A stretch of 64,000 bases of DNA from the NCBI GenBank assembly GCA_963731265.1, contig CAVSUE010000001.1, positions 576,001 to 640,000 on the forward strand. Direction: 5' to 3'. Source of the DNA: an uncultured Verrucomicrobiae bacterium. GTDB taxonomy: Bacteria; Chlamydiota; Chlamydiia; Chlamydiales; Rhabdochlamydiaceae. Positions 24,887 to 35,278 of this stretch are shown here, in pieces. The notes beneath the pieces were generated by a model, which saw only the letters and a list, made by a program, of their open reading frames with translations, had not been told where the DNA came from and made no database searches. Position 1 is the first letter of the stretch, and each line of letters begins with the position of its first letter. A program made the position numbers and the translations under genes.

Positions 24887-25840
24887 CTATTTTCCTTCGT
24901 AATTCGCCTGAACCCATTCGGTCATTATTTTGATTAGGTTCTCTCTGATCGGCAGGTATGTGCTTGGGTTCTCAGGAGGGTGATCAAAATCGTAATCTAC
25001 TCCTCCCTCGCATAATTCCCTTCTGGAACAGTGCCACGTATGCTCGACCAATCCTGTAAATCGTGGTTCACTCCCGCCATCTACCGAATCTAACATCAAC
25101 ACAGGTGTTTTAAAGGCAAGACAAGGAAGGGCCGCATGCAGCCGAGTTGTGACTACGCACTTTGCTTTTCGATATAGATCTAAAATGCATTCCGCATATT
25201 TTAATCTGTGCTCTACGCATAAAAATTGAAGAAGAGGCTTACCATGAGTGACAATGACGGTAGGAGAGGAGACATTGGATTGAATATAGCGAATTGTCGC
25301 TTCATCTAAATCTACAAGGTAGATGATGTCATTTCTTTCTGTATAATTATTTTCCAATGTCAATGTGAGGCAGCCGGAAAAATAACTAGGGATGTTTTTT
25401 TCTTGCAAGATCCCAAGTGTAAATAGGTCTCTAGCGCCGATTGGGCTATGTTGCTTTAAGTAGTCTATATTTTCTTCTGAAAATACAATCGAATGAAATG
25501 AACCTGTCAAATGAATCGAGATGAAAAAAGGATCGATCTGAGATGAGGGGGGCCAGCTGATTTCGGGCGGAGGAAAAGGCAGTTCCCAGTAGCCTTCTTT
25601 CACGTGCATAAACCAGCCGCTTACTACCGCTTTAATCGGTGAATTGCAACGGAATTCATGGATGAATTCCCGATCAACAGGGACAGCGCTGACTGGTAGA
25701 AACCTTTTGGTTGCAAGGGTTTGAATATCGTCTCCGATATTGATTGTGGAATGAGAGACATAGCCAAATGTTGTTTTTCCGAAAATTGGGACAGAAAATA
25801 GGCATGTAAATAGACATAAGGCTTTGACAAAGAAGGTCAT
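24887..25840 (-). CDS. Polysaccharide pyruvyl transferase family protein with signal peptide
   Basis: NIGDDIQ, IGARD, SGCLTL, VVTTRLHAALPCLA. Confidence 0.85.
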   Translation of the reverse strand: MTFFVKALCLFTCLFSVPIFGKTTFGYVSHSTINIGDDIQTLATKRFLPVSAVPVDREFIHEFRCNSPIKAVVSGWFMHVKEGYWELPFPPPEISWPPSSQIDPFFISIHLTGSFHSIVFSEENIDYLKQHSPIGARDLFTLGILQEKNIPSYFSGCLTLTLENNYTERNDIIYLVDLDEATIRYIQSNVSSPTVIVTHGKPLLQFLCVEHRLKYAECILDLYRKAKCVVTTRLHAALPCLAFKTPVLMLDSVDGGSEPRFTGLVEHTWHCSRRELCEGGVDYDFDHPPENPSTYLPIRENLIKIMTEWVQANYEGK

Positions 25841-25842
25841 TT

Positions 25843-26469
25843 TTAAGTTCCATTGGGGGGGGTTCTAAAAACCATGAGCGAATTTTGAAACCAAGTGTCC
25901 TTGCTAACGCTTCTCAAATTTTTCTCTGCTTCGAGGTCGTTTATATATCCATAATTTGCGAATAGGGCTTTGATGTATTCATTATTCTGTTCATTGAAAT
26001 GCCCCGTACCTCCTTGATTTTTAATAGCCCAACTGAGAACAATCCCAACTCCAGCATGGCGCATGAGGTTTTCGATAAAGATCTTTTCGTACTGTTGAGG
26101 AAGATGTTCTCCCACTTCTAGGCTCAGAACCCAATCAAATTTTTCTGGAAGTTGGAACGGTTCGCTTAAATCTAAAACTTCCCCAATTCCGCATGACAGT
26201 GTCGGTGTATCTGGGTTTCCATCATATCCCTTTGCAATGAGTCCTCTCTGGCGGATTTGCGCCACATACGTGCCCACCCCGCAGCCAAAATCCACAATGG
26301 AGCGCGCTTGTTGTTCCACAAAAAAATCTGCTATCGCTTCTCCTAAATATTCATTCACTGCGTGACACTCTTCGACATCTCCAATCCAATACCCTTTATG
26401 GCTAATCTCAAAAGAATCCAGAGGTAAATAGGAACTGAGCAAAATACAATAGGCGACAAGCTTTTTCAT
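25843..26469 (-). CDS. Class I SAM-dependent methyltransferase with signal peptide
   Basis: VDFGCGVG, GYDG, SLEVGEH, GHFNEQ. Confidence 0.85.
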   Translation of the reverse strand: MKKLVAYCILLSSYLPLDSFEISHKGYWIGDVEECHAVNEYLGEAIADFFVEQQARSIVDFGCGVGTYVAQIRQRGLIAKGYDGNPDTPTLSCGIGEVLDLSEPFQLPEKFDWVLSLEVGEHLPQQYEKIFIENLMRHAGVGIVLSWAIKNQGGTGHFNEQNNEYIKALFANYGYINDLEAEKNLRSVSKDTWFQNSLMVFRTPPNGT

Positions 26470-26471
26470 TC

Positions 26472-32792: not shown

Positions 32793-32812
32793 TTCTCCGA
32801 AATTTGTTCATT

Positions 32813-34027
32813 CTATTGCACAGTTTCAAAACGCAGCATGGATTGGAGGAGTTGTTCTTTATCCATCGTCACAATTTTGAGGCCGCAATCATTCTCCCCG
32901 CAGGCTAAATGAATCAACTCCCGATCATCTTGGTTTTCTAAGACAAATCCGCTCGGAAAAATAACCCGTTTATCGATAGATGCTGTATTGGAAAAAGGGG
33001 TATCGTAAATCCCTCTGAAAAGGATTGGGTATTTGGAAATTCCTGTTAGATTAAAAGGGGGTTGTGCGTTAAATGTATACGCTCCCATCACATACCAAAC
33101 CAATCGATTTTCATCACTAAACCAGCTATGGAAAAACGCCAGATATTCATTGCCGATCTTTTTAGCCGGAGTGCCTCCGCTGATTTCCCCCCACTTTCCT
33201 GACCAGGGAAGAGAAAGATAAGCCGCCTCCGCTGGAACTGTCAAATTTTTTAGTTCATTGATCTGGGGATTTGGAAGCTCAAGCAATTTTCGAGGATTGA
33301 TTCGGTACTCTAGAAATAAACGGGGTTTTTGGTCTTTTCCTATGTATTCAAAGGGGCTCCAATTTTTTTCAACCCAATGCAAGTTCATGTCTAATGTGGT
33401 GCTGTAGTGGACATCGTATGTGTCCCGATCGATGTTAGCTGCGCACATAAAGCGACACTTTGGATAGTTTTCATCCAATCGGTTGCAAAATAGGTACAAT
33501 TGATCACCAATCAGAATAACTCGGGGATCGTCAGCATACTCACTTTGTAGTTGGATCCTTTTAAATTCTCGATCCAGCTGTTCAAATTGGTTGTTGAGAG
33601 AGACTACACCTATACGAGAGCTAAAATTAGAGTGCTCCAGCTTGGGGTTAATCACATCGTATCTAAAAAACAAATCATAGCCGGAGCTAGATTCGACAAT
33701 GCCCGGGTTGTAGGGAGCGACGACATTCCGAATATTTATTTCCTTTACCGCTAAAATAACTTTCGCATCTTCTCCGAAGGGGACTCCAGAAAGCCTGTTT
33801 GTAAGAGGAACATTCCCTAAGCGTTGATTGGAGAGAAGGGCCGCATATCCCAACATTTTTACCGAACGGCGCATCGCTGTTTGTTTGGCTTCAAGCTTGC
33901 GCACTCGATGATGAAACCATCCAACGGTTGCGATAGAACAGAGAAGGATGCACGTCATCGCCAGGATGATGGGGCCTTTCGGAATCCGGCTCATCTTGTT
34001 TCTCAAAGTTTCTTGCGTGTCGAGCAT
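32813..34027 (-). CDS. Membrane-anchored five-bladed beta-propeller glycan-active enzyme (GH130/GT91/GT108-like)
   Basis: N-terminal TM plus coiled stalk; YNPG, DDPR, EKNWSPF, GGTP, FFHS, GEND. Confidence 0.65.
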   Translation of the reverse strand: MLDTQETLRNKMSRIPKGPIILAMTCILLCSIATVGWFHHRVRKLEAKQTAMRRSVKMLGYAALLSNQRLGNVPLTNRLSGVPFGEDAKVILAVKEINIRNVVAPYNPGIVESSSGYDLFFRYDVINPKLEHSNFSSRIGVVSLNNQFEQLDREFKRIQLQSEYADDPRVILIGDQLYLFCNRLDENYPKCRFMCAANIDRDTYDVHYSTTLDMNLHWVEKNWSPFEYIGKDQKPRLFLEYRINPRKLLELPNPQINELKNLTVPAEAAYLSLPWSGKWGEISGGTPAKKIGNEYLAFFHSWFSDENRLVWYVMGAYTFNAQPPFNLTGISKYPILFRGIYDTPFSNTASIDKRVIFPSGFVLENQDDRELIHLACGENDCGLKIVTMDKEQLLQSMLRFETVQ

Positions 34028-34135
34028 ATCTTGGCCAAGTTAGTGAATCGGGGAATGGTAATGGAAAACTCGAAATTTTAAAAATACTTTTTTCTCATTG
34101 AAAAAAAAATCTCTCTTTTTTAGGCTTTTGCCCCG

Positions 34136-35278
34136 ATGGAAACATACATCCTCCTCTTGATAGCTATTCAAATTGTTCTATTTGTCAGTTTACGAAACTT
34201 GAAGACTTCGGTACGGAAAGCTCAAAGCAAATCTCTATCAATAGCTCGAAAAAATGAGGCGCTTCTTCATAGTATAAATCTCTCGCTCGAAAATCTTGCG
34301 AAGGCTAGTTCGCTTCCTGCTCCGTTGATCAACATTCCTTTTGCTGATGAAGCGGGCATTGTTATATCCGTAAAAAAAGTGATGATCGCCTCCCTAGCCG
34401 CCCAATACAACCCATCAATCGGAGCTGTAGGAGAGGGCTATTTGTTATTTTTCCGCTATGATGAGACAAACTTCAAAAATGAACGCCTACAGATTTTCTC
34501 TAATATCGGATGCGTCTCATTAGATCGAAATTTTGAGCCTTTAGAAAAAGAGCATTCCAAGATTGAGACAAATAGTCCATTCTCAGAAGATGTGAGGTTT
34601 TTTCAAAATGGCGAGAGTCATTTTCTCGTTTACAACGATCTGATCTCTCGTTCTGAAGATCGTCGAGGCATTCGTATCGGCTCCATCGACTTATCCACAA
34701 GAAGACTCGAATATGTAACAACTCTTGATCTGGATTCGAAAAGAACAGAAAAAAATTGGACCCCTTTTTCTCATGGAGGGGAAATCCATTTTCTCTATAC
34801 GATTAATCCTCAGAAAATCTTAACTCTTCCAAATCCGCAGAAAAATCTCTTGCGACCCTCTCCCAATTCGTTCCAAGCCGACCTGGAGTGGTCAAACAAG
34901 TGGGGTCTGTTGCGAGGGGGGACGCCTGCCAAGTTGGTCGAGGGGGAGTACCTTGGATTCTTTCATAGTTCTTTCGAGGATTATAGAGGAATCGTTTGGT
35001 ACTTCATGGGGGCCTATACATTTGCTCCTTTCAGCCCCTTCAAAATTACCCGAATTTCTCCCCATCCAATCTTATTCAAAGGTGTTTACGATACGCCTCA
35101 TCAAGTGTTTGCAAATCCAAAAGTACGCTCGATCTATCCAGCTGGATTTACCTGTGAACATCGTGACGGCAAAGAGTTGATCCACGTCTCTTGTGGAGAA
35201 AACGACTCGGGAATGAAGATCGTTACAATGGACAAAAATGCGCTGCTGGCTAGTTTAAAAACTTTGGGGGCCTGTTAA
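34136..35278 (+). CDS. Divergently transcribed paralog: membrane-anchored beta-propeller glycan-active enzyme
   Basis: N-terminal TM; YNPS, EDVR, EKNWTPF, GGTP, FFHS, GEND, colinear with 32813..34027. Confidence 0.65.
   Translation: METYILLLIAIQIVLFVSLRNLKTSVRKAQSKSLSIARKNEALLHSINLSLENLAKASSLPAPLINIPFADEAGIVISVKKVMIASLAAQYNPSIGAVGEGYLLFFRYDETNFKNERLQIFSNIGCVSLDRNFEPLEKEHSKIETNSPFSEDVRFFQNGESHFLVYNDLISRSEDRRGIRIGSIDLSTRRLEYVTTLDLDSKRTEKNWTPFSHGGEIHFLYTINPQKILTLPNPQKNLLRPSPNSFQADLEWSNKWGLLRGGTPAKLVEGEYLGFFHSSFEDYRGIVWYFMGAYTFAPFSPFKITRISPHPILFKGVYDTPHQVFANPKVRSIYPAGFTCEHRDGKELIHVSCGENDSGMKIVTMDKNALLASLKTLGAC

Follow-up and report, generated by a model that had tools for sequence, protein, structure and literature searches.

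We describe a cluster of eleven adjoining genes for glycan-modifying enzymes in an uncultured member of the Rhabdochlamydiaceae (assembly GCA_963731265.1, contig CAVSUE010000001.1, positions 576,001 to 640,000; this whole stretch of 64,000 nt is called the window, and coordinates refer to it unless another contig or locus is named). Every protein of the cluster starts with a hydrophobic segment, which in nine of them has the layout of a Sec signal peptide. We consider it moderately probable that the cluster encodes a conserved set of Sec-exported glycan-tailoring enzymes that act in the periplasm or in the lumen of the host vacuole, probably on a glycan of the bacterial envelope. The enzyme families themselves are known, and what is new is their systematic and conserved signal tagging in an intracellular phylum. 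A full-text literature search gave no description of signal-tagged glycosyl- or methyltransferases in chlamydiae, within the literature and terms that it covered.

The listing of open reading frames (ORFs) places ten close-packed ORFs on the minus strand from 24887 to 34027, with a divergent plus-strand ORF adjoining them at 34136-35278. In the order of transcription the run encodes the GH130-like propeller, Methyltransf_24 enzyme d, FkbM, GT25, Methyltransf_24 enzyme c, a probable methyltransferase, Methyltransf_24 enzymes b and a, the Methyltransf_23 protein and the pyruvyl transferase. The features of the cluster are given here by coordinate, with a slash marking a candidate signal cleavage site.

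24887-25840, minus strand: polysaccharide pyruvyl transferase (PF04230, 50.8 bits, cut-off 25.3, profile positions 1-277 of 280); signal MTFFVKALCLFTCLFSVPIFG/KTT
25843-26469, minus strand: class I S-adenosylmethionine (SAM) methyltransferase, Methyltransf_23 (PF13489, 29.3 bits, cut-off 27), with predicted signal peptide
26472-27158, minus strand: Methyltransf_24 enzyme a (PF13578, 40.9 bits); likely start M21 (ATG at 27158), ORF open to 27218; signal MLFRRTRFFQISFLFLSSRLFA/DAS
27148-27852, minus strand: Methyltransf_24 enzyme b (PF13578, 56.2 bits); signal ending IGNLSA/ANS
27853-27982, minus strand: orphaned 3' end, about 42 codons, of a gene disrupted by an insertion sequence (IS), placed by alignment with the related locus L007
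27983-29203, plus strand: IS3-family insertion sequence of 1221 bp, with orfA at 28059-28322 (HTH_Tnp_1) and orfB at 28316-29164 (rve/rve_3)
29204-29835, minus strand: 5' part (codons 1-211) of the disrupted gene, a probable class I methyltransferase; signal MRILNTLSLLLVSSVFA/EGP; ORF continues into the IS to 29110
29832-30452, minus strand: Methyltransf_24 enzyme c (PF13578, 61.6 bits); canonical signal ending NLAFA/APV
30462-31403, minus strand: GT25 glycosyltransferase (PF01755, 43.2 bits, cut-off 24); likely start M35 (ATG at 31403); signal MNNFIHLFLLFSCSLSYG/ALQDHLKKAEGK
31417-32118, minus strand: FkbM methyltransferase (PF05050, 40.2 bits, cut-off 22.7; TIGR01444, 67.3 bits, cut-off 37.7); signal MKRLLALLAIYNLHA/VDP
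32115-32789, minus strand: Methyltransf_24 enzyme d, the core gene (PF13578, 65.0 bits; RMNT_CmcI, 34.4 bits); signal ending GAIPAFS/VNT
32813-34027, minus strand: GH130-like five-bladed propeller (PF04041, 30.3 bits, cut-off 26) with a basic N-tail, an anchor of about 20 residues and a basic stalk helix
34136-35278, plus strand: divergent propeller paralogue, 42% identical to the product of 32813-34027; anchor without a preceding Lys or Arg and with a strongly basic stretch after it

With the preferred starts, the junctions within the run measure -11, -4, -4, 2, 2, 9, 13 and 23 nt, in agreement with the tight, overlapping ten-gene run noted in a first-pass annotation of this DNA. Nine of the eleven proteins match Pfam above cut-off, among them the GT25, the pyruvyl transferase and the propeller that had been named there, and the identity between the two propellers bears out its description of the plus-strand protein as a divergent paralogue. 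Its count of seven methyltransferases stands in part: six exceed their cut-offs (four Methyltransf_24, FkbM and Methyltransf_23), but the seventh is sub-threshold and cut by the IS. Because this gene, the fifth of the run by coordinate, falls below threshold, we regard six methyltransferases as confirmed and one as probable and truncated.

The four Methyltransf_24 enzymes score 40.9-65.0 bits against a PF13578 cut-off of 26.3, and all carry the SAM motif E-I-G-x-x-x-G, as VEIG-x-x-x-G-S or AEIG-x-x-x-G. The GT25 protein has an EDD motif of the DXD type within VMEDDIEV. FkbM was the sole informative name that NCBIfam gave for a cluster protein. Sequence searches of the PDB returned human procollagen galactosyltransferase 1 as the closest solved relative of the GT25 protein, a weak match at E 0.001. 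They returned no solved relative of the pyruvyl transferase at E ≤ 0.01 and, for the Methyltransf_24 enzymes, a single uninformative match to a designed protein (E 0.0013). Among the window ORFs scanned with Pfam (sets of 17 and 41 proteins) there are no sugar-nucleotide, flippase, polymerase or ABC-exporter genes, as the first-pass annotation had stated, and likewise no initiating transferase or ligase; the window does not hold a complete O-antigen or capsule locus. The cluster has a G+C content of 0.41-0.43, the same as the surrounding window, and recent horizontal transfer was rejected as an origin since no compositional island is seen.

N-terminal segments were assessed with a heuristic rule of our own (not SignalP), under which nine or more uncharged residues in a row must begin within the first 12 of a candidate start and reach a 9-residue Kyte-Doolittle mean of 2.0 or higher. 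Such a segment is present in all 11 cluster proteins. The same rule selects 565 of 1888 crude ORFs of the genome (30%) if any start in the first 40 codons is accepted and 348 of 1888 at the first start only, and the chance expectation for the cluster, taking seven independent families, is about 0.3^7. When the translations are read directly, 9 of the 11 proteins display the n/h/c layout of a Sec signal. Lys or Arg occurs within the first 2-7 residues in eight of these nine (GT25, read from M35, has none), the h-region is uncharged over about 9-15 residues with a 9-residue mean of 2.06-2.6, and the first five residues of the presumed mature protein are free of Lys and Arg in eight of nine. Candidate cleavage sites, chosen by eye, are LFA/D, LSA/A, VFA/E, AFA/A, SYG/A, LHA/V, AFS/V and IFG/K, with no clean site in the Methyltransf_23 protein. 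On the strength of the charge placement, the short core and the small residues read at candidate -3 and -1 positions, we predict that the N-terminus stays inside, that the catalytic domain is translocated and that the signal is cleaved.

The choice of start codons matters for such predictions. The longest ORFs of GT25 and of Methyltransf_24 enzyme a are over-extended upstream, and M35 and M21, respectively, fit the upstream stop codons and the orthologues; enzyme a then overlaps the gene upstream of it by 11 nt. The 4-nt and 11-nt overlaps and the 2-nt gaps are consistent with the starts chosen throughout the run. Any start downstream of the hydrophobic segment would remove a Pfam domain or orthologue-conserved sequence in each protein, and in the pyruvyl transferase the next in-frame start is codon 77, within the domain. 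The statement of the first-pass annotation that every protein begins with a Sec-like signal or anchor is upheld, by the heuristic for all eleven proteins and by direct reading as nine signals and two anchors, and the concern it raised that true starts might lie downstream of the hydrophobic segments is not borne out, since the signals of GT25 and enzyme a remain after correction. Two other routes were considered and set aside: Tat export, given that an RR pair occurs in one protein only and is missing from its orthologues, and lipoprotein anchoring, given the lack of a conserved lipobox cysteine among the GT25 homologues examined.

The signals are conserved among relatives. We compared 15 related loci, the named relatives being Simkaniaceae, Rhabdochlamydiaceae and other chlamydial metagenome-assembled genomes (MAGs). 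The nine signal-type genes have 36 orthologues or paralogues there, 34 of which retain a hydrophobic segment, at identities of 25-85%; one of the two misses is cut by a contig end, and the other has a signal by eye after an upstream stop. The signal sequence drifts between orthologues while its character stays. Gene by gene, the segment or signal is present in 3/3 orthologues of the Methyltransf_23 protein, 3/3 of Methyltransf_24 enzyme c, 6/6 of enzyme d and 5/5 relatives of FkbM, and it is retained in the L007 orthologue of the pyruvyl transferase (84% identity). For GT25, 12 of 13 proteins in the related loci pass the rule, as do 92 of 120 close homologues under its strict form, most of the other 28 being borderline (1.4-1.98) or truncated. 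Across these 120 homologues the uncharged span has a median length of 18 residues and a start near residue 4, and the presumed mature N-terminus after it is conserved, with LQDHLKKAEGK.

A wider survey of enzyme d covered the best 150 of 5746 50%-identity representatives with E ≤ 0.001. The segment occurs in 46 of them, about five of which look false positive, and not in the other 104, with the positives concentrated at the top ranks. As judged from these sequences, the signal is a derived trait of the clade and not a family-wide one. Five of eight long representatives that were checked are GT25-Methyltransf_24 fusions, each with a signal-like start, and the existence of such fusions ties sugar addition and methylation together.

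Conservation extends to gene order. A Simkaniaceae MAG shows synteny with the cluster, and the core (propeller, Methyltransf_24 enzyme d and GT25, often with a second propeller) recurs in loci L008, L009, L011, L012 and L018, so the co-occurrence in Chlamydiae that the first-pass annotation proposed to look for is found. In L007 the entire minus-strand run is present in the same order and without the IS3 element, with orthologues at 74-85% identity and the propeller at 78%. Of the plus-strand propeller paralogue, L007 has no more than a remnant of 39 residues left (9782-9898), which makes this second propeller dispensable there. Of 400 genomes sampled from the phylum, 112 contain close GT25 relatives (E ≤ 1e-20), which often stand in tandem. 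Three families have them frequently (49/89, 29/69 and 9/46 genomes), and none was seen at that threshold in the sampled genomes of two others (0/23 and 0/29).

Within the related loci the tagging is selective: neighbouring GT92, GT11, GT10, LicD and FkbM proteins are signal-tagged, and epimerases, GT9 and UDPGP proteins are untagged. The signal-tagged genes beside the core, which comprise GT92, GT11, GT10, LicD and several FkbM, lie in these segments.

L009 12933-19992
L020 17596-20293
L018 13050-14756

A UDP-glucose dehydrogenase at L018 176-1504 (minus strand) has an apparent 17-residue signal-like extension ahead of its Rossmann GxGxxG motif, which could be a start-site artefact or could denote an exported NAD-dependent enzyme.

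The two propellers differ from the other nine proteins in having, rather than cleavable signals, membrane anchors of about 20 residues with a highly basic stretch behind them. An AlphaFold model of the GH130-like protein, made from a 38-sequence alignment, reached a pLDDT of 89.4 and includes one long helix spanning residues 17-63. The best Foldseek matches are 7fip and 9gph (beta-1,2-mannobiose and beta-1,2-oligomannan phosphorylases, E about 1e-11 to 3e-12), followed by other GH130 enzymes and the GDP-mannose-dependent MPT enzymes of Leishmania. In an alignment of the family profile to solved structures, which spans only about the first 90 residues of the domain, the motifs with Asn, with Arg and with the catalytic Asp of (E/D)DPR line up with 7fip (E 7e-6), and the (E/D)DPR motif does so with 9fj8 as well. 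D167 and R169 are invariant in the 38 aligned family members and in all five genome paralogues, and K221 and H300 are conserved in the propellers. The plus-strand protein gave no Pfam match at E ≤ 0.01 and retains N107, R122, D167, R169, E220, K221, W223, H300 and D380. A feature-based lead to GT91/BMT (PF12141) was not confirmed, Pfam giving the plus-strand paralogue an E of 0.15 and the other propeller no match.

Three further GH130-like paralogues elsewhere in the genome have classical signal peptides, and all five share the conserved residues, including the (E/D)DPR Asp. Taken with the conserved basic N-tail, these signal-tagged paralogues point to periplasmic propeller domains, whereas the charge bias around the anchors, described below, points to the cytoplasm.

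The IS3 element, which the first-pass annotation had missed, breaks the probable methyltransferase gene after codon ~211. The final 30 residues of the resulting ORF derive from the element and match its other copies, and the uninterrupted orthologue is 253 aa long. A glycine-rich motif, LFDLGAAQGY, and sub-threshold matches to Methyltransf_12, Methyltransf_31 and Methyltransf_25 are what link the gene to methyltransferases, Methyltransf_12 scoring 18.4 bits in the window and 19.4 bits in the intact L007 orthologue against a cut-off of 30. A single-sequence AlphaFold model of that orthologue had a pLDDT of 33.8 and was not used. The element itself is missing from L007, where positions 14900-15741 align with window positions 27988-27147 at 84.7% identity, and a double match of L007 14900-14909 suggests a target duplication of about 4 bp. 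There are four full copies in the genome at 99.9-100% identity and one partial copy; the near-identity of the four indicates a young element that transposed recently in a reduced genome. The copies outside the cluster lie on contig 1 at 861885-863105, 1592781-1594002 and 1782783-1784003, with the partial one at 1349-1522.

Tagging is also seen elsewhere in this genome, in a GT10, a second pyruvyl transferase, the three GH130-like proteins, a fifth Methyltransf_24 and, by eye, a GT17-Methyltransf_24 fusion; ManC, Gmd, GT4 and GT2 proteins are untagged. At contig 1 685408-688425 (L031 7408-10425), two of the GH130-like genes and the pyruvyl transferase, all with classical signals, adjoin OEP, MacB/FtsX and ABC ATPase genes. 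An envelope-glycan locus at contig 2 231265-244211 (L028 6265-19211) encodes a WaaL-like Wzy_C protein, Gmd, GT4, ManC, an epimerase, an amine-oxidase-like flavoprotein and GtrA, as well as the GT17-Methyltransf_24 fusion, a protein of 492 aa with a signal- or anchor-like N-terminus. Outside the window, contig 1 also carries a Bac_transf gene with a UDP-glucose dehydrogenase gene. Judging by ManC, Gmd and the epimerase, GDP-mannose is made in the cytoplasm, and probably GDP-fucose as well. A link of the cluster to a conventional envelope-glycan pathway is possible because GDP-sugar synthesis and a WaaL-like ligase are encoded elsewhere in the genome, and by its gene content such a lipid-linked pathway, lying outside the window, could supply the substrate.

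The supply of donors is of particular concern for enzymes outside the cytoplasm. No metK (PF02773) was found in this 96%-complete genome, as opposed to 10 of 14 control genomes in which it was found, and SAM must therefore come from outside, across the periplasm. The search for SAM transporters that the first-pass annotation had suggested yields five double-EamA candidates. According to passages of PMC3104491, Parachlamydia and Waddlia were the sole holders of metK in the set of chlamydial genomes available at that time, and the SAM/S-adenosylhomocysteine carrier CTL843 of C. trachomatis is a protein with two EamA domains that transports in either direction. GspF of a type II secretion system (T2SS) and an adjacent secretin are encoded in the genome. 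For nucleotide sugars the only precedent that we cite is the glycogen of the C. trachomatis inclusion lumen, which, according to portions of PMC4829429, is made by secreted enzymes with host UDP-glucose.

Elsewhere in the window a further tagged enzyme is found.

8344-9057, plus strand: fifth signal-tagged Methyltransf_24, outside the cluster (PF13578, 74.5 bits), read from M13 of the ORF 8308-9057; N-terminus MKKKNYCKAGFIGFVLSIVCQASFLHC

It is 39% identical to enzyme d. A PhyH-type dioxygenase gene (7416-8264, plus strand) lies directly upstream and an aldo/keto reductase gene downstream, and the three may form a small separate tailoring unit. Other window products include a CT021-family protein and an autotransporter, the latter a protein of 1019 aa (37158-40217, plus strand) whose long Gly-rich passenger raises the local G+C to 0.50-0.52. 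Next to the cluster, purB (adenylosuccinate lyase; 35295-36755, minus strand) is broken by a single in-frame TAG at about 36141-36143 and may be a pseudogene or reflect a sequencing error. Its N-terminal piece has a signal-like MSKSFFILILASCFCFAG ahead of the canonical start region of the enzyme.

The scheme that we infer from these observations, in its export, compartment, donors, substrate and order of steps, is as follows. Nine enzymes with predicted cleavable signals, namely five or six SAM-dependent O-methyltransferases, FkbM, the GT25 hexosyltransferase and the pyruvyl transferase, would by virtue of those signals have the periplasm as their site of action or, if passed on by type II secretion, the lumen of the host vacuole. 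The two anchored GH130/GT108-like propellers would make or trim a beta-mannoside, GT25 would then add a hexose, and the methyltransferases and the pyruvyl transferase would finally cap the sugars of a bacterial envelope glycan. The donors would be drawn from host-derived pools, which would cross the periplasm anyway because no SAM synthetase gene was found in the genome. The broader proposition, that environmental chlamydiae carry out Leloir glycosylation, O-methylation and pyruvylation outside their cytoplasm, in the periplasm or vacuole lumen, with host SAM, nucleotide sugars and phosphoenolpyruvate (PEP), is offered more tentatively and falls somewhat short of what we would call probable. 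A similar idea had been put forward in the first-pass annotation as a Golgi-like extracytoplasmic module; the nine conserved Sec signals and the failure to find metK strengthen it, but the propellers may not belong to it, since they may face the cytoplasm.

Several observations weigh against this scheme. By the positive-inside rule, which is established knowledge, the charge bias around the anchors predicts that the catalytic domains of the propellers face the cytoplasm: 92 of 106 clear-anchor homologues (out of 120) have more Lys and Arg after the anchor than before it, with means of 6.0 in the 15 residues after and 3.9 before in the 106, and in orthologues of the plus-strand paralogue positive charge is all but absent ahead of the anchor. 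Crude ORFs pass the heuristic in 30% of cases, and Rossmann-fold N-termini yield false positives with it. Cytoplasmic ManC, Gmd and epimerase would better suit enzymes that face the cytoplasm, and the IS3 insertion may be polar on the four downstream genes.

It is therefore appropriate to ask what else the cluster might be. If the hydrophobic segments were uncleaved tethers at the inner leaflet, a lipid-linked glycan could be tailored with the cell's own nucleotide sugars and imported SAM before flipping and ligation. All the donors are classically cytoplasmic, the genome encodes ManC, Gmd, an epimerase, a WaaL-like protein, GtrA and Bac_transf elsewhere, and the charge bias of both propeller anchors fits as well. 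However, Lys or Arg precedes the core in 8/9 of the signal-type proteins and is absent from the five residues after it in 8/9, at about 9-15 residues the cores do not suffice to cross a membrane, small residues stand at the candidate -3 and -1 positions, and the three GH130-like genome paralogues have classical signals instead of anchors; we regard this arrangement as distinctly unlikely. A cluster that is an artefact of over-extended ORF calls, or a relic in decay, is very improbable. The over-extension of the GT25 and enzyme a ORFs, the IS-disrupted gene, the in-frame TAG in the neighbouring purB and the reduction of the L007 plus-strand propeller to a 39-residue remnant would all suit it, but the signals survive start correction and keep their character despite sequence drift, and 10 of 11 ORFs are intact. 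The full synteny with L007 at 74-85%, the core in other chlamydial MAGs and GT25 in 112 of 400 genomes speak against decay as well.

The substrate may instead lie with the host. Transferases tagged for Sec could leave through the T2SS and, with host-transported donors, remodel host glycoconjugates at the lumenal face of the vacuole membrane, or the contents of the vacuole, rather than the bacterium's own envelope. The same signal-peptide evidence would serve, T2SS components are encoded, and GT10, GT11, GT92, GT25 and LicD (in relatives) and GT17 (in this genome) are families typical of the eukaryotic endoplasmic reticulum (ER) and Golgi. The nearest solved relative of GT25 is the human enzyme named above, at the weak E of 0.001, and lumenal UDP-glucose is used in C. 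trachomatis, as parts of PMC4829429 describe. However, the bacterium's own WaaL-like ligase, initiating phosphoglycosyl transferase and GDP-sugar synthesis indicate a bacterial glycan. Furthermore, the tagged genes of L009 adjoin Bac_transf and sugar epimerase genes, as in envelope-glycan loci. We consider a host-directed role unlikely, and continue to favour exported enzymes that act on the bacterial envelope.

Comparison with known systems helps to define what is unusual here. Lipopolysaccharide (LPS), O-antigen and capsule are tailored in the cytoplasm by enzymes such as GT25 galactosyltransferases of lipooligosaccharide, rhamnosyl O-methyltransferase/CmcI/TylF-type enzymes and pyruvyl transferases, which are not known to carry signal peptides. 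They share Pfam families and catalytic motifs (E-I-G-x-x-x-G, EDD) with the cluster, which differs in being signal-tagged and in lacking, among the window ORFs scanned, the initiating transferase, flippase, polymerase, ligase and sugar-nucleotide genes of such loci. The lumen of the eukaryotic ER and Golgi is a compartment outside the cytosol, equipped with donor transporters, in which transferases of the Leloir type and methyltransferases operate. The overlap in families covers GT25 itself, then GT10, GT11, GT92 and LicD in relatives, and GT17 in the genome, and procollagen galactosyltransferase 1, the nearest solved GT25 (E 0.001), is an ER enzyme. However, the bacterial proteins have predicted cleavable signals where those of the ER and Golgi have type II anchors, and the cluster matches its surroundings in G+C (0.41-0.43). 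The propellers share with GH130/GT108 enzymes (7fip, 9gph, 6q4w and 6q50) the five-bladed fold (Foldseek E 3e-12 to 1e-8, TM-score on target 0.56-0.72) and the aligned Asn, Arg and (E/D)DPR motifs at only 12-20% identity, and they differ in their extra N-terminal anchor or signal peptide. Glycogen synthesis in the C. trachomatis inclusion lumen, as set out in portions of Gehre et al. 2016 (PMC4829429), is alike in placing sugar-nucleotide enzymes outside the cytoplasm and supplying them with a host-derived activated sugar. Its enzymes are type 3-secreted and its product is a storage glucan, whereas the present cluster has predicted Sec signals and tailoring families and would also need SAM and PEP.

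Textbook accounts of glycan assembly in bacteria place the Leloir chemistry in the cytoplasm, with export afterwards, and to our knowledge only lipid-linked donors are thought to be used outside the bacterial cytoplasm. If our reading is true, signal-tagged GT-A transferases, SAM methyltransferases and pyruvyl transferases, widespread in the phylum, would break this rule, and SAM, UDP- and GDP-sugars and PEP would be usable in the chlamydial periplasm or vacuole. The cluster would then provide the first bacterial SAM-dependent methylation of glycans outside the cytoplasm. Its product would be a heavily capped, O-methylated and pyruvylated glycan of the surface or the vacuole, which could shield the bacterium from host glycosidases or lectins, and the space around the bacterium would be a bacterium-run analogue of the Golgi lumen.

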